A stretch of DNA of 64,000 nt from Candidatus Poribacteria bacterium. Lineage in GTDB: Bacteria > Poribacteria > WGA-4E > WGA-3G. A program made the translations under genes and the position numbers. The stretch is taken from assembly GCA_965198235.1 (NCBI GenBank), contig OZ240248.1:4352001-4416000 (forward strand), in the 5' to 3' direction. Each line of letters starts with the position of its first letter. The first letter of the stretch is position 1. Below are positions 2,610 through 52,309 of the stretch, piece by piece. The notes beneath the pieces are model-generated. The model was not told the origin of the DNA. It did not search any database and worked only from the letters and a program-made list of their open reading frames with translations.

Positions 2610-4583
2610 CTACTGTGGACGTTTTTCAATGTCGTCAAGAATGCCAAGCATCTTCTCCGCACCAACAAATCCGGTGAATCGCTTGAGAACAGTGCCATCA
2701 GCATCCATAAAAATGACGACCGGTAATCCGGGAATCTGATATTTCTCGGTTAACGCCTCAGTCGTTTCGGAGCTGCGGGTGAAATCGAGTTTAACATTCA
2801 CATAATCATCGAGTTTCGCAGCGACCGCGGGATCCGCATAAGTTTTATGATCAAGTTCTTTACACGCAGCACACCAAGAGGCATAAAAATCAAGCATTAC
2901 GAGTTTGTCTTCCCGCTTCGCAATTTCAAATCCTTCGACCTCGTCGTAAATCCAATCCAAGTGGGGTCCGGCAGGCTGTTGGATACCTCCAACAAACATA
3001 TAGGCACCCAGTACTGCCAGCAAAAGTCCGCACGCCTTTTGGAATCGCATCCGTGGAGAGATGCCGCTGAAACGTTGTGTCAACTTACCGAGCCACACCC
3101 CAATGAGCACTAAACCCCCCGCAATCGCAAAAAACGGCAGCGAGTTCTGTAGGAAATCCTGCAACGGTGGAAACACATCTTTAAGAAAGTAGAGTGCCAT
3201 CGTAATAATGGCAATGCCGAAGACGTTTTCCAAAACATACATCCATCCACCTGAACGTGGTAGCGCGGAGAGCAACCCAGAGAACGTGCCAATGCCGATA
3301 AAGAGGAGTCCCATTCCGAGGGCGTAAGTGAACATGAGCCAGAATCCGAGGAAGAGACTTCCCGTCGTCGCGATATAAGTTAGCACGACTGCCAATGCAG
3401 GTCCCGTGCAAGGTGCGGCGATCACCCCTGCGACTGTCCCCATAGCGAAGGCACCTGCGAATCCGGTACCGCCAACGGTGTTCAGACGGTTCTGCACCGC
3501 ATACGGCAACCGAATCTCAAAAACACCGAACATAGACAGTCCCAAGGTCACAAGAATTAGACTGATGAAACCGACGACCCACGGGTTTGCCATTATCTGA
3601 CCGAAGACCGCCCCGGTCGAGGCAACCGCCACGCCTAAAATCGAATAGGTCATAACGATCCCGAGCACATACACAACAGAAAGTAGGAAAGACTTGAGAA
3701 AACCAGCAGACTCATTGGCACCGAAGACAGAAACGGTGATCGGTATGAGTGGGTAAACACACGGAGTCAAACTCGTCAAGATGCCCCCTGCAAACACAAG
3801 TAGGAATGCGAGCCAAACTTGCCCACCGGAGAGCGCCCGCGCGAGGCTACCTTCGTCGGCGCCGCTACTCGGCGGTGCACCGAATTGGACATTGGCGAAA
3901 ACCGCTTCATTAATCCGCTGAATGGTGTCCTCAATACCAACAATTTCAATAGGGACCGCAAAAGCAAGAACTTCGGGTAATAGACACTGCTCATCGTTAC
4001 ACGCCTGATATCTCAGTTCCAAATCCAGCATCATAGGGTCGAGCGGAGCAGTTTGACCTAAATCGGCTTGGACCCCGATAGTAATGGTATCGTGATAGAC
4101 TGGAGCTTCTCCAATTGAACCGAGTGCCAATACTTCACCCTTGGGATATACGACTTCACCGAAAGTAAGATGCGGCGTATCGGGTAAAATGACCTCGGTC
4201 GCGATTAATCCTTGATTCGCTGGATTGGCGTTGACGTGCCACCCTTCGGCAATCTCAACGACAACTGCAATTTGGAATTGGCTACCAGGTTGCACCTTGT
4301 CAATCGAGAGGTACCCCTTTGCCGAGAGTTTTTCAACAGGTAGTTTTTCACCAAATCCGAAATCCGTGAACTGCGCCTGTACATAAGCAGGAGCAATCAT
4401 TGTGATAAGCACTAACAGCCCACAGAATAGATTTTTAACTATGGGATCCTGGGCATCGTTCCAAATGTAAAGCCAAGACAAATTATGCCATTTAAGGAAA
4501 CCTAATTTCGTTTCACGAGGGTGTTTGGTGAATCGCGACTGGGTTAAAGGTATGTACGGTTTTAAGATCGTTCTCTCTGCCAT
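2610..4583 (-). CDS. dsbD: Thiol:disulfide interchange protein DsbD (N-domain, TM domain, thioredoxin)
   Basis: YQACNDEQCLLP, TSLTPCVYP, APCTGP, DFYASWCAACK. The N-terminus contains a repeat-derived insert. Confidence 0.92.
   Translation of the reverse strand: MAERTILKPYIPLTQSRFTKHPRETKLGFLKWHNLSWLYIWNDAQDPIVKNLFCGLLVLITMIAPAYVQAQFTDFGFGEKLPVEKLSAKGYLSIDKVQPGSQFQIAVVVEIAEGWHVNANPANQGLIATEVILPDTPHLTFGEVVYPKGEVLALGSIGEAPVYHDTITIGVQADLGQTAPLDPMMLDLELRYQACNDEQCLLPEVLAFAVPIEIVGIEDTIQRINEAVFANVQFGAPPSSGADEGSLARALSGGQVWLAFLLVFAGGILTSLTPCVYPLIPITVSVFGANESAGFLKSFLLSVVYVLGIVMTYSILGVAVASTGAVFGQIMANPWVVGFISLILVTLGLSMFGVFEIRLPYAVQNRLNTVGGTGFAGAFAMGTVAGVIAAPCTGPALAVVLTYIATTGSLFLGFWLMFTYALGMGLLFIGIGTFSGLLSALPRSGGWMYVLENVFGIAIITMALYFLKDVFPPLQDFLQNSLPFFAIAGGLVLIGVWLGKLTQRFSGISPRMRFQKACGLLLAVLGAYMFVGGIQQPAGPHLDWIYDEVEGFEIAKREDKLVMLDFYASWCAACKELDHKTYADPAVAAKLDDYVNVKLDFTRSSETTEALTEKYQIPGLPVVIFMDADGTVLKRFTGFVGAEKMLGILDDIEKRPQ
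4432..4533 (-). repeat. Palindromic element (PE) copy 1, right module, in frame inside dsbD
   Basis: Shares TTTTAACTATGGG.A.CTGGGCATCGTTCCA and TTCGTTTCACGAGGGTGT.TGGT with 6953-7013; the reverse complement resembles 22208-22267 and 52251-52309. Confidence 0.85.
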
Positions 4584-4600
4584 GGGTTAATTCTCCTCAA

Positions 4601-6256
4601 TTACCTCGGTTCAAGCACAACGCAAGGCAGAATCATCTCCTCAAGTGAAACACCACCGTGTTGGAAACTGCCCTGAAATATCTCTTTATAGACATCGAAT
4701 TGTCTTTCATAAACAAAGTAGTAGTCCTCTTTTGCGAGAACATAACTTCTTCGTGCTTCTTCACCCGGTAAGCGATACGCGCCTGGTTCCTTTATGACCC
4801 ACCCGGCTTCAGGTGAACACGAGATGTTTTTTCCTTCTTTAAACCGAAGCCCAGTCGTGAGTTCCGCTTGACTTGAAACTTTCGCTGCATTTTGGCAAAG
4901 GAGCGAACCGTGGTCAGACGTTAAGACGACCGTCATACCGCGTTCAGCCGCAATCCTGAATATTCTATAAAGATGCGAATGCTGAAACCACGCCTGGGCG
5001 AGCGTCCGAAATGCTGCTTCATCTGGAACGAGTTGCTGTAGTAAATCCATCTCATGCCGCGTATGGGTCATCATATCAAGGAAATCGACAACAAGTGCCG
5101 TCAAACTAATCCTGTCCGTAACGTTTAGCCAGTGTAAATATTGAATTTCGCCGCGTGTATCAAAAATTTTGAAGTAATGGAGAGGCGGCTTGAGAAGTAT
5201 GCCGTGCCGCTCAAGTTGTAAGCGCATGAGATCCTTCTCATAGCGATTGATACTCGTGTGCGCTTTATCGGGTTCTGCGTATAGGTCCGGGTGCCTTTCA
5301 GCAAATTCAAGCGGAAACAACCCGCTAAAAATAGCGTTTCGTGCATAACGGGTGGCTGTTGGCAGAATGGAATAATAGTAATCTGTGGTTATATGAAACA
5401 GCGGATACAGCAAGGGTTCAATTTTCAACCAGTGGTCCAACCGCATACAATCCATAACAACAAATAGGACCTGCTTCCCTGCCTGAACTTCAGGAATGAC
5501 ATATTTGTAAACGACATCCACAGATAAAGTAGGTGACGCTTCACTCGCAAACCAATTGTGATAGTTGGCTTGAATATAGTCAGCGAACGCAGCATTTGCC
5601 TCTCGTTTCTCTATTTCATGGATGGATTTAAGTTCATCGACGTTATGAAGGGTATCAAGTCGCAAATCCCATTCAACGAGGCGAACATAAGTATCAATCC
5701 ATGTCTGCCAATCGTCAGCGGAACTGTGTCCCTGCGTAGCACCACCTGATATTTGTGCCTTGTTAAAGTTCTGAGCGTAAGCCTGTGGTGTATATGCTTC
5801 CCGTCTCGTCTGTTTTTCAAGTATAAAAGCAAGCGATGTCTCCAACTGTCGAGACGAAGTTTCGTCCTGATCATTTGCTGTCCGTATGAAAACACTGTCA
5901 ACATCGTAAAGGCTTGCTTGCTGCAGCACTTCCTGTCCACCCTCGTGTGTTAGGAGAATAATAGGAATATGCGCATCCACACTCCGAATATACGAAAGCA
6001 GATTCTCCTCTCGCGTCGCTCCGTCATAATTCAATAGGACAGCATGATATTCTTCATCTTGGAGTAACGTAATACCTTCAGTAATAGTGTTTGTTAAAGA
6101 AATGTCGTATCCTTGATATTCCAGAAAGCGGATGTAGGGGTTGGATGTTATATTGGTCTGCTCCTCATGACCTCGCCCCTTAAGTTGCGCGCCAGATTGC
6201 TCTACATCAGATATCTGGTTATCAATCCACAGAATCCTCCATCTTTTTTCCTGCAT
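4601..6256 (-). CDS. PorX-like protein: receiver-like domain plus PglZ alkaline-phosphatase domain
   Basis: RILWID receiver start; MDCMRLD, ILPTATRYARNAIFSG, TSDHG and FQHGGVSLEEM PglZ motifs. Confidence 0.85.
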   Translation of the reverse strand: MQEKRWRILWIDNQISDVEQSGAQLKGRGHEEQTNITSNPYIRFLEYQGYDISLTNTITEGITLLQDEEYHAVLLNYDGATREENLLSYIRSVDAHIPIILLTHEGGQEVLQQASLYDVDSVFIRTANDQDETSSRQLETSLAFILEKQTRREAYTPQAYAQNFNKAQISGGATQGHSSADDWQTWIDTYVRLVEWDLRLDTLHNVDELKSIHEIEKREANAAFADYIQANYHNWFASEASPTLSVDVVYKYVIPEVQAGKQVLFVVMDCMRLDHWLKIEPLLYPLFHITTDYYYSILPTATRYARNAIFSGLFPLEFAERHPDLYAEPDKAHTSINRYEKDLMRLQLERHGILLKPPLHYFKIFDTRGEIQYLHWLNVTDRISLTALVVDFLDMMTHTRHEMDLLQQLVPDEAAFRTLAQAWFQHSHLYRIFRIAAERGMTVVLTSDHGSLLCQNAAKVSSQAELTTGLRFKEGKNISCSPEAGWVIKEPGAYRLPGEEARRSYVLAKEDYYFVYERQFDVYKEIFQGSFQHGGVSLEEMILPCVVLEPR

Positions 6257-6415
6257 ATTATGCCCCCTTTGTGGAATGTAGGTTTGCCAAAGCACCCTAC
6301 ATCTTGATAAACGGGCAACCTATTACGTGCCCGATGTCTTCGGGGTGAGCAGTCGTGAATCCTCCGATAAAAAGCAGAAAAGCATGTGGTGCTATCCTAC
6401 TGAAGCAAACAAAAA

Positions 6416-7831
6416 CTAAATACTCGAAACAAACCGACCCGGATTCAACAAACCAGTCGGATCGAATTTCGCTTTAAGCTGTTTCATTAAATTGAGTGTT
6501 CCTTCGACGGAACCCCAAACGTCAATGTGTCGTTTGAGTTCAGGTGGTGCAACTTCTATGATGAGATTTCCCTGCCTCGACATTGCAGTTTGACGCAGTT
6601 GCGCTAGCGCATTCGCAAGCGATTGGTAATCCGTGTCGGATGCCACAGGAATAGTGACATACAACACACCACTTCCGAGCAACGCCATCATCTGGGCATC
6701 ACGAGCCCAATTCGCCTCCACAATTTGCGCAGTAAATTCTGCGAGATCGGTGCGCTTCAGGTTCAATTTGGCAACCACTATTTCGGTATTTTTGTTATTT
6801 GCTGAGAATTCCTGAACAGCCTCCTGAAGGTGCTGTAACGATTCGTTTTCTATAATTGTGACACCTATCGCACCGTTTTGTTCCATAATTCCTTGGCACT
6901 GCGTCAATTGCCACGCCACAGTTTCGGGATCCCCACCGAACCCAACCACCACTTTTTTAACTATGGGCACCTGGGCATCGTTCCACTTCGTTTCACGAGG
7001 GTGTCTGGTTAATTCCGGCTGAGTTGGGGATTTGTCCGCTCTTAATTGGGTGCTTTCTGCATTGATGAATAGATTTACAAACATCGGCAGTGTTTGTGAA
7101 CTGACAATACCTAAACCCGTGTTAGCTGCGTCTTGAACGTTCTGAAAGTCTGCTGTAAGTATCGCTTGCCGTACGGGTATGGGTGACAACTTGAGGGTTA
7201 CCTCGGTAATGATACCGAGTGTCCCAAACGCACCAATATAGAGTTTGTTAAGATCGTAGCCAGCGACATTTTTCACCACTTTGCCACCACTTTTGACAAC
7301 GGTGCCGTCTGCCCGAACAACCCGCAATCCCAAGACCTGATTTCGGGCGGTCCCATGCCGTAAACGGAAAGAGCCACTCGCGTTTGTTGCTACAATCCCA
7401 CCGATGGTACATCGGTCTGCATACGGTGGATTCAACACCAGATACTGACGATGCTCCGCCAATTCAGTCTGGAGGTCCCTCAAGCGGATACCCGCTTCCA
7501 CGGTTACAGTTAAATCCGCCGGTTCATACTCAACAATACTATTCAGGGACGTTGTCGCCAGTACCACATCTACTTTCTGTGGCAGATTTCCAATACCAAG
7601 TTTCGTACCTGCACCCGCAGGCATAACCGACACACCTTGTTTTACCGAAAATTGGAGGACCTCTTGCATCTCTTGGACAGATGTCGGTAAAACGACTGCC
7701 TTCGGCACGTATCCATCAAAAGTGTAGGCTGCGACCTGTTCCTCCGGAAGGATGCCGGATTCGCCGACAATACCTTTAAGTTCATCGTGCAGTGCACGTG
7801 AATTTTCCATACACTTCTCTTTCTCGGTCAT
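6416..7831 (-). CDS. glcE: FAD-binding oxidoreductase, glycolate oxidase GlcE-like
   Basis: EYEPADLTVTVEAG, GGKVVKNVAGYDLNKL, FDPTGLLNPGRF; lies downstream of glcD. Confidence 0.85.
   Translation of the reverse strand: MTEKEKCMENSRALHDELKGIVGESGILPEEQVAAYTFDGYVPKAVVLPTSVQEMQEVLQFSVKQGVSVMPAGAGTKLGIGNLPQKVDVVLATTSLNSIVEYEPADLTVTVEAGIRLRDLQTELAEHRQYLVLNPPYADRCTIGGIVATNASGSFRLRHGTARNQVLGLRVVRADGTVVKSGGKVVKNVAGYDLNKLYIGAFGTLGIITEVTLKLSPIPVRQAILTADFQNVQDAANTGLGIVSSQTLPMFVNLFINAESTQLRADKSPTQPELTRHPRETKWNDAQVPIVKKVVVGFGGDPETVAWQLTQCQGIMEQNGAIGVTIIENESLQHLQEAVQEFSANNKNTEIVVAKLNLKRTDLAEFTAQIVEANWARDAQMMALLGSGVLYVTIPVASDTDYQSLANALAQLRQTAMSRQGNLIIEVAPPELKRHIDVWGSVEGTLNLMKQLKAKFDPTGLLNPGRFVSSI
6953..7013 (-). 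repeat. PE copy 2, right module, in frame inside glcE
   Basis: Encodes TRHPRETKWNDAQVPIVK, the same frame and peptide as the dsbD insert. Confidence 0.85.
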
Positions 7832-17671: not shown

Positions 17672-19045
17672 TTAAAAAAACGTCAGATACAGTTTTCCAA
17701 CAATCTCCCGCCATAACAGGACTGCGAGTTCGCGGGCGTGATAATCGCCCCACATCGAAGCCTCTCCACACGGAATCTTCCTGCCTTCCGGCACATAATC
17801 CCACCCATTCGGACGGTGATATATCGAATGCAACAGCAGCCCTTGATGCGTATCGGATTCAGAGAGATAGGGTTCAGCGAAGAGCGTCTTCGCGACTGTT
17901 AAGCCCGCTTGGTAATAGGAATCTCCTGCATCTGGTTCACCGTGTTTTCTGAGATAGTTGCCCAGCCGAATCAATCCTTGCGCCGCAATCGCGGCGGCGG
18001 AACTATCTACCGGTTCAAGATCGTTGAACGGATCCGCGGGGACTGCCAAATAATCGTTGATATATTCGGCTAAACCGGGCGCGCCTGTATCCCAATATGG
18101 GATTCCGTCCTGTGCCGTGTTTTCAATATAGAAATCAGCGGTGGCTTCTGCCGCTTTGCGCATGTGTGCCGTTGCCAGTTCATATCCACCGTAAGGTTCA
18201 AGCATATCTGCTGGTAGCGTGTCAAAAAATTCAAGTTGCTCGGCGTAACCCGTAATAATCCATGCGAGTCCGCGCGTCCACGTCGTAAACGGTGAATACC
18301 CCTGCTGCGTACTCGGACAGCGGTAGTTCCCATCGTTCGTATTGAAGATAGATTCATGTACCACCCGTCCACGCAGGTCGAATGCATCACGACCTTCGCC
18401 ATAGTAGACGTTATAGGTTGCCGTCGTCTGCGAATGCTGGAGCAAGCGTTCCAGTAGACTAACAGCGACATCGCCCTCATCCATAAGCACTGCGCCAAGG
18501 GTATGTCCAAGTCCCAAAACCCGTAGAGAACGAATAGTGTCTGAGAAAAGCGAATGCGGTCCATTGAAAGAGGCGATATATCCCGTGCCATCTTTAATAC
18601 GGGTCCAGCGACTCGCTTGCACGGCAGCGGAGGCTTTCAGTGCGAGTTCATAGAAATCCATCTCGCCATCGTTCAAGGGAATCACACCCTCCCGCATCAA
18701 ACGTCGGAGGTTGCCGTAAGTAGAGACATTATTGAAACCGTGATCATGGACACCAATGTGGGTCACATGGGGTGCCATCTTTTCAATCGTATTCCGTCTA
18801 CCGATCTCAAGGAACTGCTCATCGCCAGTGGCATCAAATTGGAGAATAGCGGAGCCGAATTGGAACCCTTGCGTCCACTCAGTCCAGCCGCGTGTCGTGT
18901 AGGTGCCAGCGACCGTAAAAACAGGTGTCCCTTTTTCGGGGGGCCATGTGTCTTCTATTGCTAAAATTTTTTGACCTGAACATTCAAAAAGCCTCTGAAT
19001 CTGAGGCTTCAGATCGGCGGGATGCAATGAATCGTTTATCTGCAT
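17672..19045 (-). CDS. Glycoside hydrolase family 88-like (unsaturated glucuronyl hydrolase-like)
   Basis: WTEWTQGF, HDHGF, TWTRGLAW, DSSAAAIAA, WGDY. Confidence 0.8.
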   Translation of the reverse strand: MQINDSLHPADLKPQIQRLFECSGQKILAIEDTWPPEKGTPVFTVAGTYTTRGWTEWTQGFQFGSAILQFDATGDEQFLEIGRRNTIEKMAPHVTHIGVHDHGFNNVSTYGNLRRLMREGVIPLNDGEMDFYELALKASAAVQASRWTRIKDGTGYIASFNGPHSLFSDTIRSLRVLGLGHTLGAVLMDEGDVAVSLLERLLQHSQTTATYNVYYGEGRDAFDLRGRVVHESIFNTNDGNYRCPSTQQGYSPFTTWTRGLAWIITGYAEQLEFFDTLPADMLEPYGGYELATAHMRKAAEATADFYIENTAQDGIPYWDTGAPGLAEYINDYLAVPADPFNDLEPVDSSAAAIAAQGLIRLGNYLRKHGEPDAGDSYYQAGLTVAKTLFAEPYLSESDTHQGLLLHSIYHRPNGWDYVPEGRKIPCGEASMWGDYHARELAVLLWREIVGKLYLTFF

Positions 19046-19226
19046 TTTTTAAATTTTCCTTGCGGTTCGGTGAGGTGCATTGGATGAACAACGATCCCCT
19101 CCGTAGATCCGCCTGCGCCGTTGTTGCAGGCTACAGTTTTGGTTTAACATTCCATTCTTAACCAGAAACCCGCATTCTCACTGCGAAGCAAATGGACACA
19201 GCGGGCCAGAAGCAATAAGTTAAAAA
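19046..19226 (+). repeat. PE copy 3 (full length), abutting the GH88 start codon
   Basis: TTTTTAAATTTTCCTTGCGGTTCGGTGAGGTG...GCTACAGTTTTGGTTTAACATT...ACCAGAAACCC...AGTTAAAAA. Confidence 0.85.
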
Positions 19227-19238
19227 TCTAAAACTGCC

Positions 19239-19745
19239 TTACGGTGTGTCTGCGGCATCAGCATCTTTATACCGTTCACATATCACTTGGATGAGATTGG
19301 TTGTGGACTTACCCGGGACGTTCAAACCGACGATAACCTCACCACCGTTTGCCTCAACGATATCCCTTTCAATGAGTTGTTCCAGTTGATAGTCGCCACC
19401 TTTAACGTGGATATTCGGTTTGAGATCGGCAAGCAAAGAAATTGGCGTTAGTTCTGGAAAGATAACGACGTAATCGACGCATTCCAACCCAGCGAGCATC
19501 TCTGCGCGCTCATCTTCAGGAACGAGTGGACGATTTTCACCCTTGAGTTCCCGGACTGAACCATCACTGTTAACCGCCACCACGAGCAGATCCCCAAGCT
19601 GACGCGCCGCCTGAAGATAACGGAGATGGCCCAAGTGTAGTACATCAAAACAACCGTTGGTGGTGACAACAACGTCTCCGCCTGCTCTCGCTTGCTGAAG
19701 AAGGGATGCAAGTTCGTTGCGATGATAGATTTTTTGGCTTGACAT
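19239..19745 (-). CDS. rfaE2: D-glycero-beta-D-manno-heptose 1-phosphate adenylyltransferase (RfaE domain II)
   Basis: TNGCFDVLHLGH, NSDGSVRELKG..RP, KGGDY, STT. Confidence 0.9.
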   Translation of the reverse strand: MSSQKIYHRNELASLLQQARAGGDVVVTTNGCFDVLHLGHLRYLQAARQLGDLLVVAVNSDGSVRELKGENRPLVPEDERAEMLAGLECVDYVVIFPELTPISLLADLKPNIHVKGGDYQLEQLIERDIVEANGGEVIVGLNVPGKSTTNLIQVICERYKDADAADTP

Positions 19746-19890
19746 TTTTCTATTTCTAAACTTTAGTTTAGTATAGTTTAGCACGCATTAGACCGTTTGG
19801 CAAGTTTTTCCTTTATTGCCCAATTCATGATTCTGTGCTACAATGAAGTGGAAATTGTAGTAAAAAATTATGCCGATCAGGAGAAAAGAG

Positions 19891-21057
19891 ATGACACAGC
19901 AAAAAGAACACACGCATCGCAGGTTACCTATTTGCACGCTCGGCGCACCCGGACACGGCAAAACAACATTGACGGCGGCGATAGCAAAGGTCGTCGCGAG
20001 AATCGGTGCGATCCACACGAACGGAGATAGCGACTTTGAAATCCAAACCCCAATCAGCCACCCAATCCGAGAAGGGGTCGGCATCACCTACCGTGCAATA
20101 GCGTATGAAACCAGCGGTAAACTTTACAGACAAATCGATTGCGAGACACACATCGATGCTGTCAAAATGCTCGTCAGTGGGTCTCCAGCAATCCAAGGGG
20201 CAATTTGGATAGTAAATGCAGTCGAAGGGATAACACCCGACTCCGAGGCACATCTCCGCCTTGCCAGCCAGATGCAATTCCCGACAGTGTTATCCTTTCT
20301 TAACACAGGTGGTACTCCAAAGGACGATGAACTCATAGACATTTGCCAACAGGAAATGGAAGAACTGCTGAACGAGTGTGGATGGGATGAAGAAACCGCT
20401 CCAATAATCGTTGGCGACGTGCGCAAGGCATTAGACTACAGGGGAGACAGTATCACCTCCACACAGTGGCAACCGATCGTTGACCTTATCTTCGCAATGA
20501 ATCGGGCAATGCCTGCCCCCGTGGACACGGCACGCTTACCGCTTATTATGCCTATTCATGAAATCACTGAGGAAACGAAGGAGAGTGTATCCGTCCGCGG
20601 CGATATTGTGCAGGGACAACTCGCTGTCGGACAAGCCGTAGATATCGTGGGCAAAGGGGACAGAATTAAGACGCGGGTTCTCAGTATAAAGGAGGATGAA
20701 GTGTGCGTCGAATCTGAACCCGACTGGTTGTCTCTTGGACAGGTACTTTGTACACCGAAGACAGTCAAATCACATTCCGAATTTACGGCACTCATCTATC
20801 TGCTGACACACGAAGAGAGCGGCACACATATCCCCCTGATCGAAAACGACAGACCTGACATCTATCTATGGGGGACTGACATACCAGCGCATCTAAAACT
20901 CCCGCCAAGTCTCTCCCTTATTACACCGGGGGCTTATGCCCACGTCTCCGTTACACTCGACTTACCGCTGGTGATGGAGATCGGCACCCGATTTGAAGTA
21001 AAAAAGATGGATGTGCGAATCGGGTTCGGTGTTGTGACTGGCGTAGGTGATCTCTGA
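19891..21057 (+). CDS. Highly divergent EF-Tu paralogue with degenerate G motifs
   Basis: Colinear with EF-Tu over all three domains: GHGKTTLTAAI, GIT, YET...IDC..H, LPLIMPI, GQVLCTP, F.A.IY.L..EE.G.H.P, RIGFGVV. Confidence 0.85.
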   Translation: MTQQKEHTHRRLPICTLGAPGHGKTTLTAAIAKVVARIGAIHTNGDSDFEIQTPISHPIREGVGITYRAIAYETSGKLYRQIDCETHIDAVKMLVSGSPAIQGAIWIVNAVEGITPDSEAHLRLASQMQFPTVLSFLNTGGTPKDDELIDICQQEMEELLNECGWDEETAPIIVGDVRKALDYRGDSITSTQWQPIVDLIFAMNRAMPAPVDTARLPLIMPIHEITEETKESVSVRGDIVQGQLAVGQAVDIVGKGDRIKTRVLSIKEDEVCVESEPDWLSLGQVLCTPKTVKSHSEFTALIYLLTHEESGTHIPLIENDRPDIYLWGTDIPAHLKLPPSLSLITPGAYAHVSVTLDLPLVMEIGTRFEVKKMDVRIGFGVVTGVGDL

Positions 21058-21189
21058 TCCAAAACCTGAGCCCGTAAGCGTAGCGGAGGGGTGTTTTTGC
21101 TTGGGTATTTCTTCGGATTTCTTCAGATATACGTCAAAGAACGTTATTCACCCGTTGACTTCACCGAACCGCAAGGTATAATTAAAAAA
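21058..21189 (-). repeat. PE copy 4 (left and central modules); its TTAA supplies the hisA stop codon
   Basis: CTTCACCGAACCGCAAGGTATAATTAAAAA and GAGCCCGTAAGCGTAGCGGAGG (reverse complement of the PE core). Confidence 0.8.
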
Positions 21190-21895
21190 TATGTGCGGTA
21201 GCAATTGCGTCACGCAGCGCGAGGTCACCGGTATACAAAGCACGCCCTATTATCGCGCCGCTGGCACCGATCTGCTTCAAAGCGGCTACGTCAGCAAGCG
21301 ACGTGACCCCACCCGAAGCAATCACATCCGCAGATACGGCATCAACAACATCGGCAGTTGCGTCAACATTGGGACCCTTGAGCATGCCATCGCTTTTGAT
21401 GTCAGTGTAGATAAGCGTTTGGACCTCCGATATCTCCACGGCAAATTCGACAGCAGATTTTTGAGAGACCTCTAACCATCCGTCCGTGGCGACCCTTCCA
21501 TCTTTCGCGTCGATGCCGACAGCGACGCGCACACCGTGTTCGGCACACGCCTGCTTCACCAAACTCGGTTGTTTGAGCGCAACCGTGCCTAAAATGGCGC
21601 GATCCACACCTAACGCCAAAACCGCTTCTAATTGCTCCATGCTGCGGATGCCACCGCCAAGCTGGACAGGAATATCAAGCTCACATACGATTTCGCTAAC
21701 GATATGGAGGTTCGCCGATTCACCCTGAAACGCGCCGTCCAGATCCACGAGGTGCAAGTATTCTGCTCCCTCGGCTTGCCACCGCAATGCCATTTCCACA
21801 GGCGCGTCCGAGAAAATTGTCTCCTGCGACGCGATACCCTGCACTAAATTTACACACTTTCCACCGCGAAGATCAATTGCGGGTAGTATTTGCAT
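21182..21895 (-). CDS. hisA: ProFAR isomerase HisA
   Basis: ILPAIDLRGGKCV, HLVDLDGA, QLGGGIRS, TDIKSDGMLKGPN, ASGGV, IIGRALY. Confidence 0.95.
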   Translation of the reverse strand: MQILPAIDLRGGKCVNLVQGIASQETIFSDAPVEMALRWQAEGAEYLHLVDLDGAFQGESANLHIVSEIVCELDIPVQLGGGIRSMEQLEAVLALGVDRAILGTVALKQPSLVKQACAEHGVRVAVGIDAKDGRVATDGWLEVSQKSAVEFAVEISEVQTLIYTDIKSDGMLKGPNVDATADVVDAVSADVIASGGVTSLADVAALKQIGASGAIIGRALYTGDLALRDAIATAHIF

Positions 21896-22267
21896 TTTTA
21901 ATTTTCCTTGCGGTATTTTAATTTTACCTTGCGGTTCGGTGAGGTGGGTTGGGGTACTGAAAGTTCCTCTCCGTATACCCGCTCTCCATTACATTACGAG
22001 CTACGTGCCTTGTTTATTGTTTTCACTAAAACCCTCAAACTCAGTTGCACATTTAATTTTCCTTGCGGTATTTTAATTTTACCTTGCGGTTCGGTGAGGT
22101 GGGTTGGAGTACTGAAAGTTCCTCTCTGTATACCCGATCTCCATTACATTACGAGCTACGCGCCTTAGTTTATTTCTTCCACCAAAACCCTCAAACATAG
22201 TTGAGACTTAATCAGAAACCTGCGCGTAATGGAATGGAGCGCAGCCAAGGCGTACATAGTTAAAAAA
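21896..22267 (+). repeat. PE copy 5: tandem duplication of a ~155-bp left/central module plus one right module
   Basis: 21896-22050 and 22051-22205 are near-identical; ends ...CGTAATGGAATGGAGCG...CATAGTTAAAAA. Confidence 0.9.
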
Positions 22268-22275
22268 CCTTTCCG

Positions 22276-23199
22276 CTATTCATCTCGGAAAATACCGAGC
22301 AACTTCAATTGGACGATTGAGATAACCGCAATAATGAAAAATAGCACCCAGCCGATTGTCGCCGCATAGCCGAGCCGCATGAATTGAAATCCGTTTTTGT
22401 AGAGATACATGACGATAGTCGACCCCGCATCCGCAGGTTCACCGCCGTTTGTTAAAATGAATGGAAGGTCAAAGAGTTGGAGCGAGCCTATCATCGAGAC
22501 AACGAAAACGAAGGCTATCACGGGGCGCAAGGAAGGGAGCGTGACATGGATGAACGCCTGCCACCAGTTCGCGCCATCGACCGCTGCCGCTTCATACAAC
22601 TCCTGCCGAATCCCTTGCAACCCAGCCAAAAAATAGATCATATTGAACCCTGCCCACTGCCAAACCCCTGTTAGGATGACCGCTGGCATCACATATTTCT
22701 CCTCGTTTAACCAACCGATCTCTTTGCCAAAAAGAACAAATTCCTGATTTATCAAGCCTGCCCGCTGGTCGTAGACGAGGTTAAAGATAATCGCGACGAA
22801 GACACCGGCGACGAGGACTGGTGCGAAAAAGGCGAGACGCAGGAAATTCTTCCCTTTGACGAATTTGGAATTGAGGAGAATCGCCAATAGCAAGGCAATC
22901 GGCAATTGGAGGGTGAGGGTGCCCGCGGCGAAATAGGCAGTGTTCCGTAGCGATTTCCAAAAAATTGGGTCACGAAACAGATCCGTGAAGTTACCGATGC
23001 CAACAAATATTCGGCTCTGGAACCCACGCATTTCATACAAACTCATAACGAGCGACGAAATGAGCGGATACCCCATAAAAATGACGAACAGCAGATAAAA
23101 CGGAGCGATAAAAAGATAGGGAGCGATTTTCTGTTGTTGATTCCAAAACCGGTTTTTAATTATTCCTTGCGGTTCGGTGAGGTTGGTTGGGGTTTTCAC
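22276..23199 (-). CDS. Carbohydrate ABC transporter permease with a repeat-derived N-terminus
   Basis: EAA motif ELYEAAAVDGA and GYAATIG; GGAGG + GTG start (23199) lies inside PE copy 6. Confidence 0.9.
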   Translation of the reverse strand: MKTPTNLTEPQGIIKNRFWNQQQKIAPYLFIAPFYLLFVIFMGYPLISSLVMSLYEMRGFQSRIFVGIGNFTDLFRDPIFWKSLRNTAYFAAGTLTLQLPIALLLAILLNSKFVKGKNFLRLAFFAPVLVAGVFVAIIFNLVYDQRAGLINQEFVLFGKEIGWLNEEKYVMPAVILTGVWQWAGFNMIYFLAGLQGIRQELYEAAAVDGANWWQAFIHVTLPSLRPVIAFVFVVSMIGSLQLFDLPFILTNGGEPADAGSTIVMYLYKNGFQFMRLGYAATIGWVLFFIIAVISIVQLKLLGIFRDE

Positions 23200-23252
23200 G
23201 TGTACCTCCGTAGAGTCAAGAAACACCCTTCCACTTCGTTTCAGGCTACGTT
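23153..23252 (+). repeat. PE copy 6 (left and central modules)
   Basis: TTTTTAATTATTCCTTGCGGTTCGGTGAGG...CCTCCGTAGA...TTCCACTTCGTTTCAGGCTACG. Confidence 0.85.
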
Positions 23253-23336
23253 TTCTCGACGATTTTTCAATTATTCCGTTGTCGCAATGCTAACGACTTT
23301 GGTCAAAGTTTTTTCAGTCAATGCTGTTTGAGAAAA

Positions 23337-29889: not shown

Positions 29890-29896
29890 ACTATTA

Positions 29897-29925
29897 ATTA
29901 TATCACAAAGATTAGTTGTTGTCAA
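29897..29925 (-). promoter_or_regulatory. Consensus sigma70 promoter of tnpA (leaderless layout)
   Basis: TTGACA-17-TATAAT with extended TG; ATG 7 nt downstream, no SD. Confidence 0.8.
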
Positions 29926-30133
29926 GTCAATTTGTAAAATATATTAGTTTTTGATATGTCAACCGATTAGCCGCTACTACATCCCAAACCTAAAGGATTG
30001 GGTTTTGTAGCGGAAGGTTTGATAATGATAAAACGCGCTACAGGAAGTGAAACCCAGAGCGCGTTTGAATTGAACCACTAATTCCAGATAATACCAATGA
30101 CAAGCGATTATTAGTACCTCTACTTGTAAGAAA

Positions 30134-30397: not shown

Positions 30398-30420
30398 TCT
30401 AAGTACCTCCTTGAACCATA

Positions 30421-31050
30421 TTACGATAATTGATCTGCCTTAGCTCTCAACCATTGCGTAACCATAGAAGTATAATCGTTGAATATCAACTCTTCAACTA
30501 TTAGTCGTCCCTCTCTCGCCATTTGAGGCAATTTTTCCATAAACTCTTGATAACGCTCCCAAATGATGCCCCCACTTGGAATTGTTTCACGTCTCGATGT
30601 GTTGCGGAGCCAATTTCGGACGTGCATTATAACTTCCCTAGAACTGTTGTTATGTGCTTGAATATCCTGACCGGCAATATCAGAAATAAATTGCTGATAC
30701 CGATACCGTTCGGTATCCAGTATCAGACACTTTTTCCTTTTTTGCTCTTCTATACCGAATTTCTTTGCGCCGAGAAAAATTCCCAATTCTAACGGCATAT
30801 TAAACCGAGGAAGATTCGAATCCCTGTCTAATTCCGTTCTGGATATATCATGAATTCCATAACGGCAGTTCGCAATTATGTTATAAATCTTATCAATCCG
30901 AACTTGACTTGCATCGTCCTCTTCAAGCGCACAACGCGGGATAAAACCGCAATCGTGTACTGCGAATATCATTGCATCAAATAATGGCTTGTAAGCTGAG
31001 TCAAATGGACAATTGATAAAAACATTGTCATTATAGTGAATTAATTGCAT
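30421..31050 (-). CDS. Hypothetical protein, putative TIR/nucleoside-deoxyribosyltransferase-like fold
   Basis: VFINCPF, I..I..C.YGIHDIS, NMPLELG, SDIAG pattern. Confidence 0.6.
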   Translation of the reverse strand: MQLIHYNDNVFINCPFDSAYKPLFDAMIFAVHDCGFIPRCALEEDDASQVRIDKIYNIIANCRYGIHDISRTELDRDSNLPRFNMPLELGIFLGAKKFGIEEQKRKKCLILDTERYRYQQFISDIAGQDIQAHNNSSREVIMHVRNWLRNTSRRETIPSGGIIWERYQEFMEKLPQMAREGRLIVEELIFNDYTSMVTQWLRAKADQLS

Positions 31051-31252
31051 TAACCCCTACACCGGTTTCACTTGTGCTACAGATCTTCCAGCCGAATGGA
31101 TCTTTTAGGTCAGTAGAACACACAAAAGAACTAACCTCTACTGTTAATTTTATAATTTCAGTATAACATACACATCATGAAGAATCCAATCTTTTTACAA
31201 GGCTTTGATTTAGAAGAAACCGTCGGGCTATAAACATAACGCTCCAACAGGA

Positions 31253-34213
31253 CTAAGAAATATCCAGCTTAACCTTCGACTTCTTTCCACCGTGAATACT
31301 CGGCTCCTGACATAGTATTTTGCGAAGCAGTGCCAGCCCTTCATGCACATCGGGACGTTCTGACTCCGTGATGTCAAGTACCTCCGATAACAACAATCGA
31401 TCGAGTTCATGACGGACCCGATCAGTGTCCATCTGATTAAATGGTAGCATCTTTTGATGTTTTAGCGAGTTGAAAATCCGCTCAGCATTGGCGAGTGCCT
31501 CATTAGAGAACTTACGTACATCCAATGTAGGCATCGCGTTAAAAGTGGCCCGACTTAAGACTCCTCTCCCTTGCTGCTGCTTCCCACTCTGATACCAATG
31601 ACAAAGCAAGCCAAACGTTGAATTGCACCACAACGTCCAGGCGTATTCGTGAATTTTGTTATCAAAGAAGACATTCGGAAGTTTATTTACGCCGATAGCA
31701 TCTTGCCCCGTAAACATTACCGTCAATGAATTCGCATTAAACTGCAATTCTACATTGTAATGTACCCGTCCGTTTAGCATCATGATTCTTTGAACTTTTT
31801 CAGTGGAATTCGGACGAGGGTGTGCGTGGGCATTTGGCGGAACAAGCATTGCCCGCTGAGTATCCGAATCCGAATCTAAATGCCAGAGGCAGGGATATAT
31901 TGCGGTGTCAGGGCATTTTTCTTCGACATCAAACGCGCCTCTGCCACCGCCACCTCTTATATCTTTGGTTCCAATTCCCAGCGTCACAATTTCTGAAACC
32001 GGACGCATAGGGAGTTGAATATCTTCGTTCTGTCTGGGGATGCGCATTACCCCATTCGCGAGATGGTGCACAGACTGAAGGACACTCATGTCTTTAACAC
32101 GGGACAAAGGCCATCCTGCATCGCTTTGAATAATAGGCGCGGAGATCAGATGTCCAATGACTTCATCCCCTATTTGGAGTCGCTCGCCACCGCTAAGCGT
32201 ATCATCATCCAACTGGCGAATATTTTTGAATCCGCGGAACTCTTTCGCGATTTCCAATGCCTCTAATTCTCCATGCGGACATCGCTTGAGGCAAACAAAC
32301 GTACCGTGTTCTGTATTTTTGCGTTTACCTTTTTTCGCAACAACGAGACACTCTGCCATGCCGGTATCTGCCGAGAAAGCACATTCTTCAATATCTTCAT
32401 GTGCGATAGTGATAACAAGGACATTGTGATATTCCTCTGCCCACATCCTTCGCACCTTTTGCCAGCTACTACCGGTAATTGCCGTGACAGGCAGGACGAA
32501 AGCCATTGTGCCGTTGCGTTTCAGCATCCTATCTGCGAGATCAACAAAGTCGGGACCCTCTCCAGGGTTATTGCCTGAAAGCCGACGCCCTTGCGCCTTT
32601 CGCGCTGCTCGCATTGCTGCGGCTTCCTTCTTGTCGGCGAAAATACTCTTGGGGACGTTTGAATTCCCATCAGCACCACTCCGCGTATAGGGTGGATTTT
32701 GGACAACGATGTCGAATTCGCCATGTCTGAACGCATCGCGGAGGCTGGTAGTTTCTGGACCTTGCCCAGTGGCAGTCTCCGTTGCGCCGAGGTCCAACGG
32801 GAGCGTCCCCGATGGATCGCTGAGTAGGTTGAGTGCTCCGATGGCGTAAAGTCCGTCAGCGCGCTGCGTGCCATAGGGCATTGTGTGGATACGTGTGCCA
32901 CCGATACGAACGTCAGGATATGTGCTTGCAATGATGGAGGCTGTCAGGTGTACCGCGTTCGGTAGGATGTCACACCCGATGAGATTATTCTCCATCATGT
33001 ACTGATGGATGGCTTCTCCCTTACCACCTGTCTGCTCGTAGAGCATGAGAAGCCGTTGGTAAACGCCGTTGAGGAGTGAGCCGGTGCCACAGGCAAAATC
33101 TGCTATTTTCAGTTTCTTTGGATCCCCGTTGAATTCCGGTAATGCGAGTGCACAGAGGAGTGCCGAGGATTCGGGACGGGTATAGTTCGCCTTGAGGATT
33201 TTCCGATTGTCGATGAGCTTCTGGAACACGATGCCCGCGAGCTCATGTTCTTGTGCAAGTCCCATTTTCTCCAATTCGCGGGCGGTATCGCGTAGTACAC
33301 TCAAAATCTCACCAACGAGTTTATCATCAGCGGCGAGCGTCTCGACGAGATTGTAGGCGACGTTGAAAATCGGGGCATAGTTAACCTTTTGGATTTCCCG
33401 CCATGCGCGGAGGACCTCGTCTGAATCGAGTTGCCCGTAATCGGCGGTGAATTCGCTGAGCGACGGGACGGCTTCCAAATCTGGCTTGCGGGCAAGGGAA
33501 CTTTGGAACACCAACGCGTTGCTGATAATCAGCATTGCCATCTGTGTCGTCTGTTCGCCGGGTTCCTGAACGAGGAGCTCGCCTATCCTTTTGCCGATAT
33601 GTGGTCGGTGTTGAATTGCGTTGTTCACAATAACAGCAGCGCGATGGATGCCGTTTTCCAATACCTCGGCGGCTCGCTCAATTTTGGTGATAGGGGTTGC
33701 CCCAATGCGGATAGCGGTTGCGATGTCGGCGATGCTGCCTTCAAGCCATCCTTTTTTGGGAAATCTGTGCGGTTCATCAATGTTGAGGAGGGCATACGCG
33801 AAATCATTTGATGCCTCTAAATTCTCGCGGATTTCGTCGCGAGACATCGTGCGGAATCTGTATGGAAGGCGGATTGCTATTGCACTGGCAATTGTTTCGC
33901 CTGTCGTGCGGAGGGTTTTTCCCAAGTAATGTTCGCGTGCCTGCTTTTCACCGGTTTCATTGGCACCCCGCTTGTAGTCGATCTTTACCTCAACCGCCAT
34001 CGGATACCGTTCAACTGTCCGGATAATTACATCAGGTTTTCTTTGATTTTCGACGAGTGGTTTCGTTGTTTGCTCGTCAATGTTCCATGTGGCACTCATC
34101 GGCATCAGGATTTCGACGAATAGGGTGGTGATGGTGTCTTCGCTGTTAGTGTGTTGTCGGTTCATGCAATTTCCTTGGCTTCGGTTAGGACATCGATTCT
34201 GGTTTATTATCAT
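31253..34213 (-). CDS. Type IIG restriction-modification fusion (nuclease + N6-adenine MTase + TRD)
   Basis: N-terminal KPDVII...VEVK (PD-(D/E)xK), motif I DFACGTG, motif IV NPPY; the real start may be ATG 34165. Confidence 0.85.
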   Translation of the reverse strand: MIINQNRCPNRSQGNCMNRQHTNSEDTITTLFVEILMPMSATWNIDEQTTKPLVENQRKPDVIIRTVERYPMAVEVKIDYKRGANETGEKQAREHYLGKTLRTTGETIASAIAIRLPYRFRTMSRDEIRENLEASNDFAYALLNIDEPHRFPKKGWLEGSIADIATAIRIGATPITKIERAAEVLENGIHRAAVIVNNAIQHRPHIGKRIGELLVQEPGEQTTQMAMLIISNALVFQSSLARKPDLEAVPSLSEFTADYGQLDSDEVLRAWREIQKVNYAPIFNVAYNLVETLAADDKLVGEILSVLRDTARELEKMGLAQEHELAGIVFQKLIDNRKILKANYTRPESSALLCALALPEFNGDPKKLKIADFACGTGSLLNGVYQRLLMLYEQTGGKGEAIHQYMMENNLIGCDILPNAVHLTASIIASTYPDVRIGGTRIHTMPYGTQRADGLYAIGALNLLSDPSGTLPLDLGATETATGQGPETTSLRDAFRHGEFDIVVQNPPYTRSGADGNSNVPKSIFADKKEAAAMRAARKAQGRRLSGNNPGEGPDFVDLADRMLKRNGTMAFVLPVTAITGSSWQKVRRMWAEEYHNVLVITIAHEDIEECAFSADTGMAECLVVAKKGKRKNTEHGTFVCLKRCPHGELEALEIAKEFRGFKNIRQLDDDTLSGGERLQIGDEVIGHLISAPIIQSDAGWPLSRVKDMSVLQSVHHLANGVMRIPRQNEDIQLPMRPVSEIVTLGIGTKDIRGGGGRGAFDVEEKCPDTAIYPCLWHLDSDSDTQRAMLVPPNAHAHPRPNSTEKVQRIMMLNGRVHYNVELQFNANSLTVMFTGQDAIGVNKLPNVFFDNKIHEYAWTLWCNSTFGLLCHWYQSGKQQQGRGVLSRATFNAMPTLDVRKFSNEALANAERIFNSLKHQKMLPFNQMDTDRVRHELDRLLLSEVLDITESERPDVHEGLALLRKILCQEPSIHGGKKSKVKLDIS

Positions 34214-50003: not shown

Positions 50004-50005
50004 AC

Positions 50006-50481: not shown

Positions 50482-52134
50482 TTACTTCTCCAAAACGATC
50501 CGAATCTCCGAGTCTATACCGTGTCCACCAAAACCCACTTTAGCAGAAATCGGACCGAGAGACTCCAGTGGAAAGAGATTTTCTGTGATACGTTGTGTCA
50601 CTGCTGCATCCAATTTCTGTCCTGAAAGAGAACCAAGCACCGTTATGATCGGAAGGAAACGCTTCAATTCCGGCACAAACAACTCCGGTTGAATAAACGC
50701 CTGAACACCATCTGCACCTGCGGAGAACGCTATATCCTCCAAAACAGGAGCGTTACCTGTGGTCGTATCAATCACAGACTTCAAGCCCGCCAGTGTTGTA
50801 CCCAAAACGAAATAGTCGTTAATGATTGCATATCCGCCCGTAACCGCTAATAGAAAATTGAGACGGAGCTGCACGGGCTGCAGTGTGATACCTTTGTAAT
50901 CCTGCGGTTCAAGGAATTCGAGTGGTTTGCCGGCAATTAAGGGCTTTCCCTCCTTCACGATTCCCAAAACTGCGTTTAATACATCCGGAGCCTTCGCATG
51001 AGCCAGCAAAACCAATGAAGGCACGACCGATACTTCACCCGGATCGGGAGCAACTAATAAGACAGTTAAGTCCGAGCCCAAAACTTCGGAGAGATCTATA
51101 TTGCCGAAGAGTTCTCGCATCTGATTCGGAATGGTCAGTGAAGCAACAAAGGCAGTACGTTCGGGAAAAGCAAGGAACGGTTTCGAGTCATCCGCAGTTG
51201 GAAGATTAGAACGGCTGGTGTCAATACTGCTTCGGAACCGATGTCGTGACACAATCACGCCTTCTTCATATCGGTTGCTAAACGCCCACGATCCTGAATC
51301 CCCAAACAACCCCAAAATTTGTTTAGCAAGCACATCGGAACTCATAGTATCCAATAAAGGAGCAAATTGCTGCAAATCTACATACCCAATGCTTTTGTCC
51401 TGATGATAATCGTCCTGTATCTCCACCGCCATCGGATGCTCAGCGAGAAATCCTTGCTTTTTCGGGTCAGTTTTTGTGCCAGAAAGCCCCGTATAGAGGT
51501 CAAGCGTCTCAACTAATAACAACGGGTCGAGGCTTAAGATGCCTATTTTTCCGATGAAGGTATAACTAAAATTGCGTGGATACCCTATAATGGTATTAAT
51601 CGTGAACTCGCCGTAATCGGATTGGAGACGCTCGTATTTTGGGTTGATCGCATCCGTTGCTGTAATCGCTTCAATGCTCAGTTTCTCCTGCGCTCCCACC
51701 GCAGTGATGAGCAGAAACGAGAGTTCTCCTTCACGTCGATAAAGCGTAAGGATGGCTTCCTCCCCAAAATAGCCGGTGATCGTCTTCAGGTCAAGTTTCC
51801 CACCCATCTCGAATTCCCATAGCTGCTTCTGATAGACGAGTTGTTTCCACCATCGCTGCTTTCTAATCTCAGTGAGAAGCGGCATTTTAGCAGTCTGCTT
51901 TCCCAACTCACTACGATTGAAGGTTTCTACCAAGCCTTTCAACTCCTTGAGCGTCAAATAACAAATTGGAGATTTCGGGAGAAGCGTGATAAGATGCTGT
52001 TCCGGTTCCCACAACGCGGTCCGGTGATAGATAATGGATAGCAAAATGATAACCCCAATAAGAACGATTAGGCTGATGAAAATGATTCTTTTAATTATTC
52101 CTTGCGGTTCGGTCAGGTGGGTTAAAACATTCAC
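50482..52134 (-). CDS. Hypothetical membrane-anchored protein (DUF3352-like) with a repeat-derived N-terminus
   Basis: 550-aa ORF with an N-terminal TM helix; GGAGGAG + GTG start lies inside PE copy 7. Confidence 0.7.
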   Translation of the reverse strand: MNVLTHLTEPQGIIKRIIFISLIVLIGVIILLSIIYHRTALWEPEQHLITLLPKSPICYLTLKELKGLVETFNRSELGKQTAKMPLLTEIRKQRWWKQLVYQKQLWEFEMGGKLDLKTITGYFGEEAILTLYRREGELSFLLITAVGAQEKLSIEAITATDAINPKYERLQSDYGEFTINTIIGYPRNFSYTFIGKIGILSLDPLLLVETLDLYTGLSGTKTDPKKQGFLAEHPMAVEIQDDYHQDKSIGYVDLQQFAPLLDTMSSDVLAKQILGLFGDSGSWAFSNRYEEGVIVSRHRFRSSIDTSRSNLPTADDSKPFLAFPERTAFVASLTIPNQMRELFGNIDLSEVLGSDLTVLLVAPDPGEVSVVPSLVLLAHAKAPDVLNAVLGIVKEGKPLIAGKPLEFLEPQDYKGITLQPVQLRLNFLLAVTGGYAIINDYFVLGTTLAGLKSVIDTTTGNAPVLEDIAFSAGADGVQAFIQPELFVPELKRFLPIITVLGSLSGQKLDAAVTQRITENLFPLESLGPISAKVGFGGHGIDSEIRIVLEK

Positions 52135-52309
52135 GTTCTCCTCCGTCCATCCGCCCTCCGCTACGCTTACGGGCTACGGTTTTGGTTTAACATTTCCAAG
52201 ATAAAAGAAACGTTGTAGGAGCGAGTTTTATTCGCGATTTCCCTGGGGCTTCACCAGAAACCCACTCGTAATGGAATAGAGAGCACCCCAGGTGCCCATA
52301 ATTTAAAAA
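52089..52309 (+). repeat. PE copy 7 (full length, with a nested GTAG REP)
   Basis: TTTTAATTATTCCTTGCGGTTCGGTCAGG...CCGCTACGCTTACGGGCTACGG...ACCAGAAACCCACTCGTAATGGAAT...CATAATTTAAAAA. Confidence 0.88.

Follow-up and report, generated by a model that had tools for sequence, protein, structure and literature searches.

A modular, translation-compatible repeat family at gene boundaries and within open reading frames of a sponge-associated Candidatus Poribacteria genome

The genome of a sponge-associated Candidatus Poribacteria bacterium (here G000; 5.17 Mb in two contigs, 48% GC, 96% complete) contains hundreds of copies of a small modular repeat that abuts the start and stop codons of genes and is, at some loci, read in frame as part of unrelated proteins. 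The family was first noticed in a window of 64,000 nucleotides, positions 4352001-4416000 of contig C1, for which an original prediction had described seven copies of a 180-220-bp palindromic element and had likened it to the Rickettsia palindromic elements (RPEs). All seven copies are real, as judged by a repeat search, by profile searches with nhmmer and by their terminal inverted repeats and sequences, and each was found, as claimed, to touch a gene without destroying its host open reading frame (ORF). [quoted passage not shown]

The repeat is built from two related types of unit, D and U, for which profiles were constructed from copies of the G000 genome itself. Searches with nhmmer returned 239 D-type and 340 U-type matches genome-wide, covering 45,608 of the 5,121,291 bases of C1 (0.89%), and a simple regular expression for the tail gave 171 sites; the family is thus multi-copy and MITE-like, as had been supposed. 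Each unit is 70-110 nt long, lacks an ORF of its own and consists of a head (TTAA(A)CCAGAAACC), a GC hairpin and a conserved A/T-rich tail (..ATTAAAAA, terminating in ..AWAAATTAAAAA) that is directed outward. The D unit, originally described as the left end of the element, reads toward the gene as ..CCAAACCCACCT[G/C]ACCGAACCGCAAGG-WAWAWT-WAAAAA, followed by the start codon; its parts are, in order, the head TTAAACCAAAACC, a GTAG-led GC hairpin, GGATMTACGGAGAGG, a variable small hairpin and the tail. The U unit, formerly the right end, reads outward as ..GAAGTGGAGCGCAGCCCAGGAGCCCATAAATTAAAAA, again followed by the start codon. Alignment of window copies showed that D and the reverse complement of U are homologous, with a common head, hairpin loop (GTAAYGNAATGGA) and tail, D differing by an extra body of about 45 nt that terminates in ACCGAACCGCAAGG.

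The 180-220-bp element therefore exists as a composite of two homologous units placed head to head, but the same units also occur singly and in head-to-tail tandems with a period of 85-155 nt. Its terminal inverted repeats, found as originally given (10 nt, 90% complementary, at 52089/52298 and 19046/19217), follow from the tails of the two inverted units. The further proposal that the central module is the reverse complement of the right one holds for an inverted repeat of 18-21 nt in the tandem at 21896 and otherwise reflects D/U homology. Among neighbouring pairs with outward tails less than 400 nt apart, U/U, U/D and D/U arrangements are all common, and the 80 such pairs in which both tails are complete have gene starts at both ends in 3 cases, at one end in 51 and at neither in 26. 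At least four further mini-repeats, with 63, 178, 80 and 127 copies genome-wide (at most 2 mismatches), are nested inside U and D loops, with window examples at 4464-4510 and 21084-21115; given this nesting, the genome carries a layered set of small repeats.

The position of the units relative to genes is far from random. Counting only starts that open at least 80 codons in the direction of the tail, 147 of 232 D tails have a start within 40 nt, 84 of them at one offset, 13 at +1 and 8 at +2; the corresponding figure for U tails is 168 of 289, with 72 at offset 0 and 12 at -1. At 5000 random positions such a start occurred between -3 and +8 in 8.7% and within 40 nt in 24.8%. The ATGs next to tails are real starts, not mere trinucleotides, since they open at least 80 codons in 99 of 111 (D) and 90 of 113 (U) cases; rpmH, beginning MKRTYQP, is one of the genes docked in this way, and start codons are abutted by about 200 tails genome-wide. 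Stop codons are affected as well: 54 of 285 U tails end an inbound ORF of at least 80 codons by the TAA in TTTTTAA, against an expectation of about 0.45 per offset. Chance and artefacts of ORF calling were ruled out as explanations by the random-position, reversed-motif, ATG and stop controls, together with alignments of orthologues.

Units inside genes do exist, but they are the minority, and the original emphasis on peptides written into proteins has to be adjusted in this respect. Only 36 of 572 units are spanned by a frame that stays open for at least 40 codons on each side, and the main niche is the gene boundary rather than the ORF interior. Pfam domains were found on both sides of the unit in 5 of 17 spanned ORFs (GH2, a YegS/DAGK kinase, hydantoinase B, NAD kinase and a TamB-like protein of 2295 aa with three units), on one side in 7 and on neither in 5, and these last five may be spurious; the FAD oxidase of the window, in which a Pfam match runs across the unit, adds a further domain-supported case. 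Each unit has one open, hydrophilic frame. That of D (..LTEPQGxxK) is read in D's own direction in NAD kinase, in a permease and in the gene starting at 52134 and its orthologue in the congener G018, and that of U is read toward the U tail as ..HPRETKWNDAQxPIVKK. Many D units additionally hold an internal GGAG-N5-GTG, a potential new start.

These arrangements can be followed copy by copy in the window. The repeat search placed the family at 19047, 21916, 22071, 23154 and 52089, with a second pair at 4507/6987. The D profile matched the minus strand at 19039-19140, 21914-22010, 22069-22166, 23144-23257 and 52080-52184 and the plus strand at 21060-21194 (E 1e-15 to 1e-24), and the U profile matched at 6953-7021, 22198-22267 and 52239-52309, with a partial match at 4432-4463. 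Two copies lie in frame within proteins. At 4432..4580 (head to tail on the minus strand; nhmmer 4432-4463, repeat 4507-4580) a U unit with a nested mini-repeat is read as residues 2-50 of the DsbD-like ORF 2610-4583, the DsbD domains (Pfam) following downstream, and at 6953..7062 (minus strand; E 2.4e-16) a U unit encodes ..STQLRADKSPTQPELTRHPRETKWNDAQVPIVKK within the FAD-linked oxidase ORF 6416-7831, where the FAD-oxidase_C match spans it. The copy at 19046 occupies the spacer between the stop of the upstream gene and an ATG, and comprises a D unit (19046..19140, minus strand; E 1.1e-24), whose tail ..GGAAAATTTAAAAA abuts the ATG (19043-19045) of ORF 17672-19045, and a degenerate U unit with a nested mini-repeat (19158..19226, plus strand). 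The latter falls below the nhmmer threshold and is recognised by sequence, alignment and the inverted repeat 19046-19055 / 19217-19226; its tail ends 13 nt from the stop (19239-19241) of ORF 19239-19784.

The hisA gene is framed by units on both sides. A D unit with a nested mini-repeat (21058..21194, plus strand; E 9.2e-16) lies between two convergent genes, its tail supplying the last two hisA codons and the TAA stop (21182-21184), so that the gene ends ..CAT ATT TTT TAA in the window versus ..CAT TAG in G018 and other congeners. On the other side, an array at 21896..22268 (minus strand) fills the spacer from the permease stop to the hisA ATG; it is made up, in order, of a partial tail, D (21914-22010), a partial tail, D (22069-22166) and U (22198-22268), the U running head to tail on the plus strand. 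The next D unit (23153..23257, minus strand; E 5.7e-21) is fused to the 5' end of an ABC permease ORF whose likely start, a GTG at 23199-23197 after GGAGG, falls within the unit, which encodes MKTPTNLTEPQGIIK (about 15 N-terminal codons) in place of the native MRQKRTTNL. In the composite at 52089-52309, the D half (52089..52184, minus strand; E 8.5e-23) lies at the 5' end of the membrane-protein ORF 50482-52134 and contributes to it GGAGGAG, its GTG start codon at 52134 and the first 15 codons (..LTEPQGIIK), an in-frame arrangement shared by G018. The tail of the U half (52239..52309, plus strand; E 2e-13) faces a putative sigma-70-like promoter with a TG-extended -10 (TTGTCT-17-TATAAT; 52320..52348, minus strand), detected by a consensus scan directly upstream of the composite and kept in sequence in G018. 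This predicted promoter would put the composite in the 5' leader of the gene.

Filled and empty alleles were both found among congeners in a comparison of six loci, in up to 30 genomes each (G-labels denote congener genomes, and L-labels the loci compared in G000 and congeners). In the FAD oxidase, 3 of 15 aligned orthologues are filled (the window, L007 and L010) and 12 are empty, 108 nt of unit replacing about 51 nt of a variable loop. DsbD is filled in the window and in G018, where the unit stands in frame in place of codons 2-10, behind the native ATG, and empty in four congeners, whose proteins start MLETIRLRKH-LF... The permease of most congeners begins MRQKRTTN.., a D tail preceding the ATG in some of them and not in others; G000, L059 and L073 have the tail fused into the gene itself, and a GGAG-preceded GTG or TTG within the unit is the only possible start.

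The NAD kinase gene offers the richest series. Among 30 loci, 17 contain one or two full D units, 1 contains a 30-nt tail only and 12 contain none, the units being in frame between MMLEVVV and PFRAFALNDVV. At least five types of filled allele are found at this one site, one of them (in G018) joining two different subtypes in tandem and another being nested, and new units sit straight after existing tails; judged from these alleles, the site has been hit recurrently. The insert of G000 relative to the L155 allele measures exactly 102 nt, with no duplication of the flank. An AlphaFold2 model of the kinase with its insert, based on 24 close-relative sequences, had a mean pLDDT of 47 and was uninformative on the insert.

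Upstream of hisA, 17 of 30 loci are filled by a unit or its tail, all reading ..AATTAAAA(A)-ATG, and the 13 empty alleles all have a TTG start after ..CGGAAGGGAAAGACT (also written ..GGAAGGGAAAGACT-TTG). In each of the 17 filled alleles, tail and ATG replace the native Shine-Dalgarno (SD) sequence and TTG. The second codon (TAT vs CAA/CAG) differs among filled as well as among empty alleles, which implies repeated origin or exchange of the two states. A different small hairpin unit (TAGTAGGCACACGCCGTTGTGCCGTCAAC), single or doubled, is present after the permease stop in hisA-locus alleles that lack the main element (L057-L063, L073, L076, L077 and L085) and has only 4 matches in the G000 genome. 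Upstream of cysS, 11 of 30 loci carry a full U unit, 4 only the last ~22 nt of the tail and 15 a sequence resembling a decayed tail. At the level of sequence, these comparisons prove polymorphic in-frame insertions in FAD oxidase, DsbD, NAD kinase and the permease N-terminus, which bears out the RPE-like presence in unrelated proteins, with remodelled termini and loops, that had been proposed. In the alignments most junctions read as replacements of host sequence, not as simple insertions.

The family is confined to a narrow lineage, again as had been expected. BLAST detected the element in 24 of 24 congeners, and an 18-nt tail motif was present in 54 of 56, with 0-206 copies per genome and the highest numbers in the closest relatives of G000. 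Outside the genus the motif was found in 1 of 38 sister-genus genomes, and 4 genomes from two further genera had one match each; a reversed version of the motif, used as control, gave 0 matches everywhere. By this distribution the family is genus-specific, with the pattern of a proliferating element and not that of a conserved regulatory site.

We thus envisage that units spread through one Poribacteria genus and were tolerated because they are translation-compatible. The tail, placed directly before the start codon of about 200 genes, would serve the host as a translation-initiation region, and its complement, TTTTTAA, gives a TAA stop to genes reading into it. The open hydrophilic frame of each unit would allow persistence within ORFs, and the internal GGAG-N5-GTG of D could act as a new start. 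The units would have been moved or copied as DNA, through recombination or an enzyme acting in trans, and would often have replaced a native 5' leader or loop instead of being plainly inserted. For the exact docking onto starts, our preferred explanation is that, once units had inserted and been trimmed, selection kept those that left a functional start region.

An alternative starts from the same tails but regards them as belonging to the host: the unit would be a regulatory cassette, not a selfish element, and its tail a portable promoter or ribosome-binding region, as in the REP2 and Borrelia IR repeats. In one variant, the tail hexamer WAWAWT would be a -10 element giving leaderless mRNAs, kept by selection at about 200 starts and possibly defining a regulon. 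Both tail types do stand at an exact offset to start codons, the A2 and T6 of the hexamer are invariant at the canonical -12..-7 from the A of ATG, one D copy of the window (21058..21194) holds a full sigma-70 consensus (TTGACT-16-TATAAT, 21155-21182), and the swap of native start regions at hisA would fit such a role. Precedents for repeats with promoter, ribosome-binding site and ATG are given for REP2 and Borrelia IR in the parts of PMC3184786 that deal with them. Yet a consensus scan of the other five window D tails found no -35, the composite at 52089-52309 has a separate promoter-like site upstream of its whole length, copy numbers among congeners vary as described, and units also lie inside ORFs, at stops and in tandem arrays. 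Moreover, tails with a docked ATG (78 copies) and tails with no gene downstream (76 copies) are equally conserved, which marks the tail as a feature of the element and not as a regulatory site of the host. We therefore regard the cassette as an unlikely explanation.

Several observations weigh against a selfish, translation-compatible repeat as well. Random insertion leaves the single exact offset between tail and start unaccounted for, and the SD-like motifs of the tail stand 11 nt (AAGGA) and 14-15 nt (AGGAG) from the start, outside the 6-9 nt at which AGGAG peaks in this genome; the role of the tail in translation is putative. Some 'empty' alleles (cysS, permease) look like deletion remnants, so the polymorphism may in part stem from loss or from exchange of alleles and not from gain. 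Compared with their best non-neighbouring match in the genome, 109 copies show a median identity of 84.3% (maximum 91%), by which measure the G000 copies are old or fast-evolving and give no sign of very recent transposition. No flanking repeat of at least 3 nt was found in 59 two-ended copies (for k=2, 4 vs 3.2 expected), and neither these copies nor the NAD kinase insertion showed a TTAA or TA target duplication, which leaves the suggested targeting of TTAA-like sites unproven; duplication within T/A runs may have taken place. A lack of target-site duplication is atypical for MITEs.

The search for a mobilising partner adds to these difficulties. Only housekeeping genes, and no transposase, lie in the 13 longer intervals that separate inward-facing units, and an autonomous insertion sequence (IS) with the same ends was not found in the G000 genome, the one genome searched. 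An IS200/IS605 Y1 transposase was not supported as partner: the surroundings of all 6 Y1 genes are free of units to a distance of 1.3 kb, one gene having some at 1.35-2.3 kb, the copy numbers of Y1 and of the element do not go together, and the five Y1 genes tested against NCBIfam were all IS200/IS605 and under the REP_Tyr_transpos cut-off. IS630-type DDE_3 genes were likewise set aside, as all six are unflanked by units and IS630-like ends are unrelated to the tails. DDE_Tnp_1 (16 matches) was considered and not supported, the flanks of these genes not having been examined.

Other small mobile systems do occur in the genome. Within the window, in a stretch of lower GC (0.42, 28001-32000), an IS605-like pair on the minus strand comprises a Y1 ORF (29476-29925; PF01797, 127 bits; IS200/IS605 by NCBIfam) and a 410-aa ORF (28243-29475) that is probably TnpB, and a near-identical copy lies at C1:4792784-4793137. 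Three Y1 genes of 159-163 aa (MANTYTQLYVHIVFSVKGR..; L102, L103 and L104, near C1 3853757, 606918 and 1898775) have on either side a different hairpin repeat (..CTATAGACATAGCAC-YCC...GGR-GTGC..), copies of which are also nested inside some U units; the arrangement looks like a RAYT/REP-type system, although NCBIfam scores the genes as IS200/IS605. As a weak lead for a partner enzyme, the only DUF123 gene of G000 (PF01986) lies together with a HigB-type toxin gene between U and D units with outward tails (L095 / L195, G000:C1:1959100-1960870).

In another reading the units are spread through RNA and would resemble short interspersed elements (SINEs), with an A-rich 3' tail and truncated 5' heads left by target-primed reverse transcription. 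Tails are indeed precise and heads variable or truncated, and some copies at cysS, NAD kinase and the permease consist of 15-30 nt of tail alone; new units are placed directly after existing tails, and there is no target-site duplication outside A/T runs. However, no RVT_1 reverse transcriptase was found in the 96%-complete genome, which also weighs against the selfish-repeat reading; the truncated copies are equally explicable as deletion remnants, and inverted pairs are common. We hold a SINE-like origin to be extremely improbable.

A bolder alternative is that the tail is recognised by an integration or copying machinery that docks units precisely, without target duplication, onto translation starts and existing tails. 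This we regard as doubtful; if it were so, the family would serve as a mobile cassette of start codon and 5' leader, by which about 200 genes (about 4% of the genome, by a size-based estimate) would have been rewired and one loop of essential enzymes such as NAD kinase struck again and again, and its mode of mobility and gene-boundary targeting would be one not described for bacterial MITEs.

Finally, the units might be structured RNAs, acting as cis-regulatory leaders, processing sites or small RNAs, with the overlaps with proteins being incidental. The stem of the D hairpin co-varies, as judged by 14 different complementary stem pairs (e.g. GCCC/GGGC, GCCTGC/GCAGGC and GCTC/GAGC). Units are also contained in contigs of RNA libraries: four metatranscriptome runs of one study contain the window stretch, stored as contigs, and one contig (22217-24006) bridges the unit 23144-23257. 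These contigs give no transcript starts, strand or levels, the libraries may contain carried-over DNA, and the high summed depth over units was attributed to their being repeats. Against a structured RNA, RNAalifold found no consensus structure for 111 unique full-length D copies in either orientation, and the gene-sense strand folded worse than its complement in 82 of the 111. The long hairpin originally ascribed to the element was not borne out either, the copy at 52089-52309 folding no better than shuffled sequences (z -0.10 as DNA, -1.17 and -0.05 as RNA). In addition, units occur in both orientations and within ORFs, no Rfam family matched 18900-23500 at E<1, and the only matches at gathering score in the window were two tRNAs. 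For a putative RNA motif named 'Poribacteria-1', a search of papers found no text using the term. Altogether, a structured RNA appears very unlikely.

A selfish, translation-compatible repeat has relatives in behaviour among several known systems. REP and REPIN sequences contain a short GTAG-led GC hairpin, occur as singles, inverted doublets and clusters, and leave no target duplication. The Poribacteria units share these features, GTAG preceding the hairpin in the D unit, but are longer and bear A/T-rich tails; moreover, unlike in REP/REPIN-RAYT systems, the Y1 genes are unflanked by units, three being flanked by the other hairpin repeat instead. Correia elements duplicate a TA target, whereas the Poribacteria units show no duplication. 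Like these elements, which the relevant section of PMC10969869 describes as MITE-like, with terminal inverted repeats, mostly beside genes and able to alter the expression of neighbours, the units are MITE-like, have terminal inverted repeats and lie mostly beside genes; the sigma-70-type promoters and integration host factor (IHF) sites that the same section ascribes to Correia elements contrast with a full promoter consensus in 1 of 6 window D tails. With MITEs in general the family shares small size, many copies, absence of a transposase gene, terminal inverted repeats and filled and empty sites, and differs in lacking target-site duplication and a related autonomous IS with the same ends.

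The closest parallel within proteins is provided by the RPEs, which are outlined in the passages on them in PMC10969869 and PMC3184786 as short non-coding repeats of ~100-150 bp, in frame in unrelated genes, with a conserved and tolerated peptide, restricted to a lineage and without a known transposase. The Poribacteria units agree with this outline in size, in-frame insertion, tolerated peptide, lineage restriction and the lack of a known transposase, and the ORF stays open in FAD oxidase, DsbD, NAD kinase, GH2, YegS/DAGK, hydantoinase B and the TamB-like protein. They belong to another phylum, are found mostly at starts and stops, and are modular (single, inverted or tandem); the likeness is one of behaviour, and membership of the RPE family is not claimed. 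For gene starts, the account of repeats in PMC3184786 has Neisseria REP2 and Borrelia IR directly upstream of genes, bringing a ribosome-binding region and ATG and containing internal stem-loops, REP2 lacking terminal inverted repeats and preceding 14 co-regulated genes in N. meningitidis Z2491. The Poribacteria tails likewise stand immediately upstream of ORFs at one offset (84/232 D, 72/289 U), but they concern ~200 genes, come as two outward tail types of inverted pairs, lie partly within ORFs and have a promoter that is only putative. Pneumococcal BOX elements, in the description given there, are modular combinations of short boxes in variable number that can extend adjacent ORFs and are thought to be mobilised by a known IS (PMC3184786); the Poribacteria units resemble this description in being modular and extending neighbouring ORFs, and differ in that no partner was found for them.

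Repeats inserted in frame (RPE), repeats bringing a promoter, a ribosome-binding site and ATG (REP2, Borrelia) and MITEs bearing promoters (Correia) are thus already known from the accounts cited; in the Poribacteria family these behaviours come together, on a larger scale and with two tails facing outward. No description of it was found in the titles and abstracts of the Poribacteria literature on repeats. If our favoured reading holds, the family would represent a second large, independent case, after Rickettsia, of readable selfish DNA in and against genes, in an uncultivated, sponge-associated phylum. It offers natural experiments, such as NAD kinases with 0, 1 or 2 inserted peptides and genes with swapped start codons, SD regions and N-termini, and the way in which two different tails dock exactly on start codons could point to a new mechanism of targeting or a compact, portable signal for starting translation. 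In practice, gene callers applied to these genomes will misplace starts, extend ORFs through repeats and split genes, and the units also break short-read assemblies.

Two further features of the window lie apart from the repeat. On the minus strand at 4601-6295, directly upstream of the DsbD-like gene, an ORF of 564 aa contains a PglZ domain (PF08665, E 5.7e-16) and may be connected with phage-defence systems, and the two tRNA genes recognised by Rfam adjoin each other at 569-641 and 671-742.

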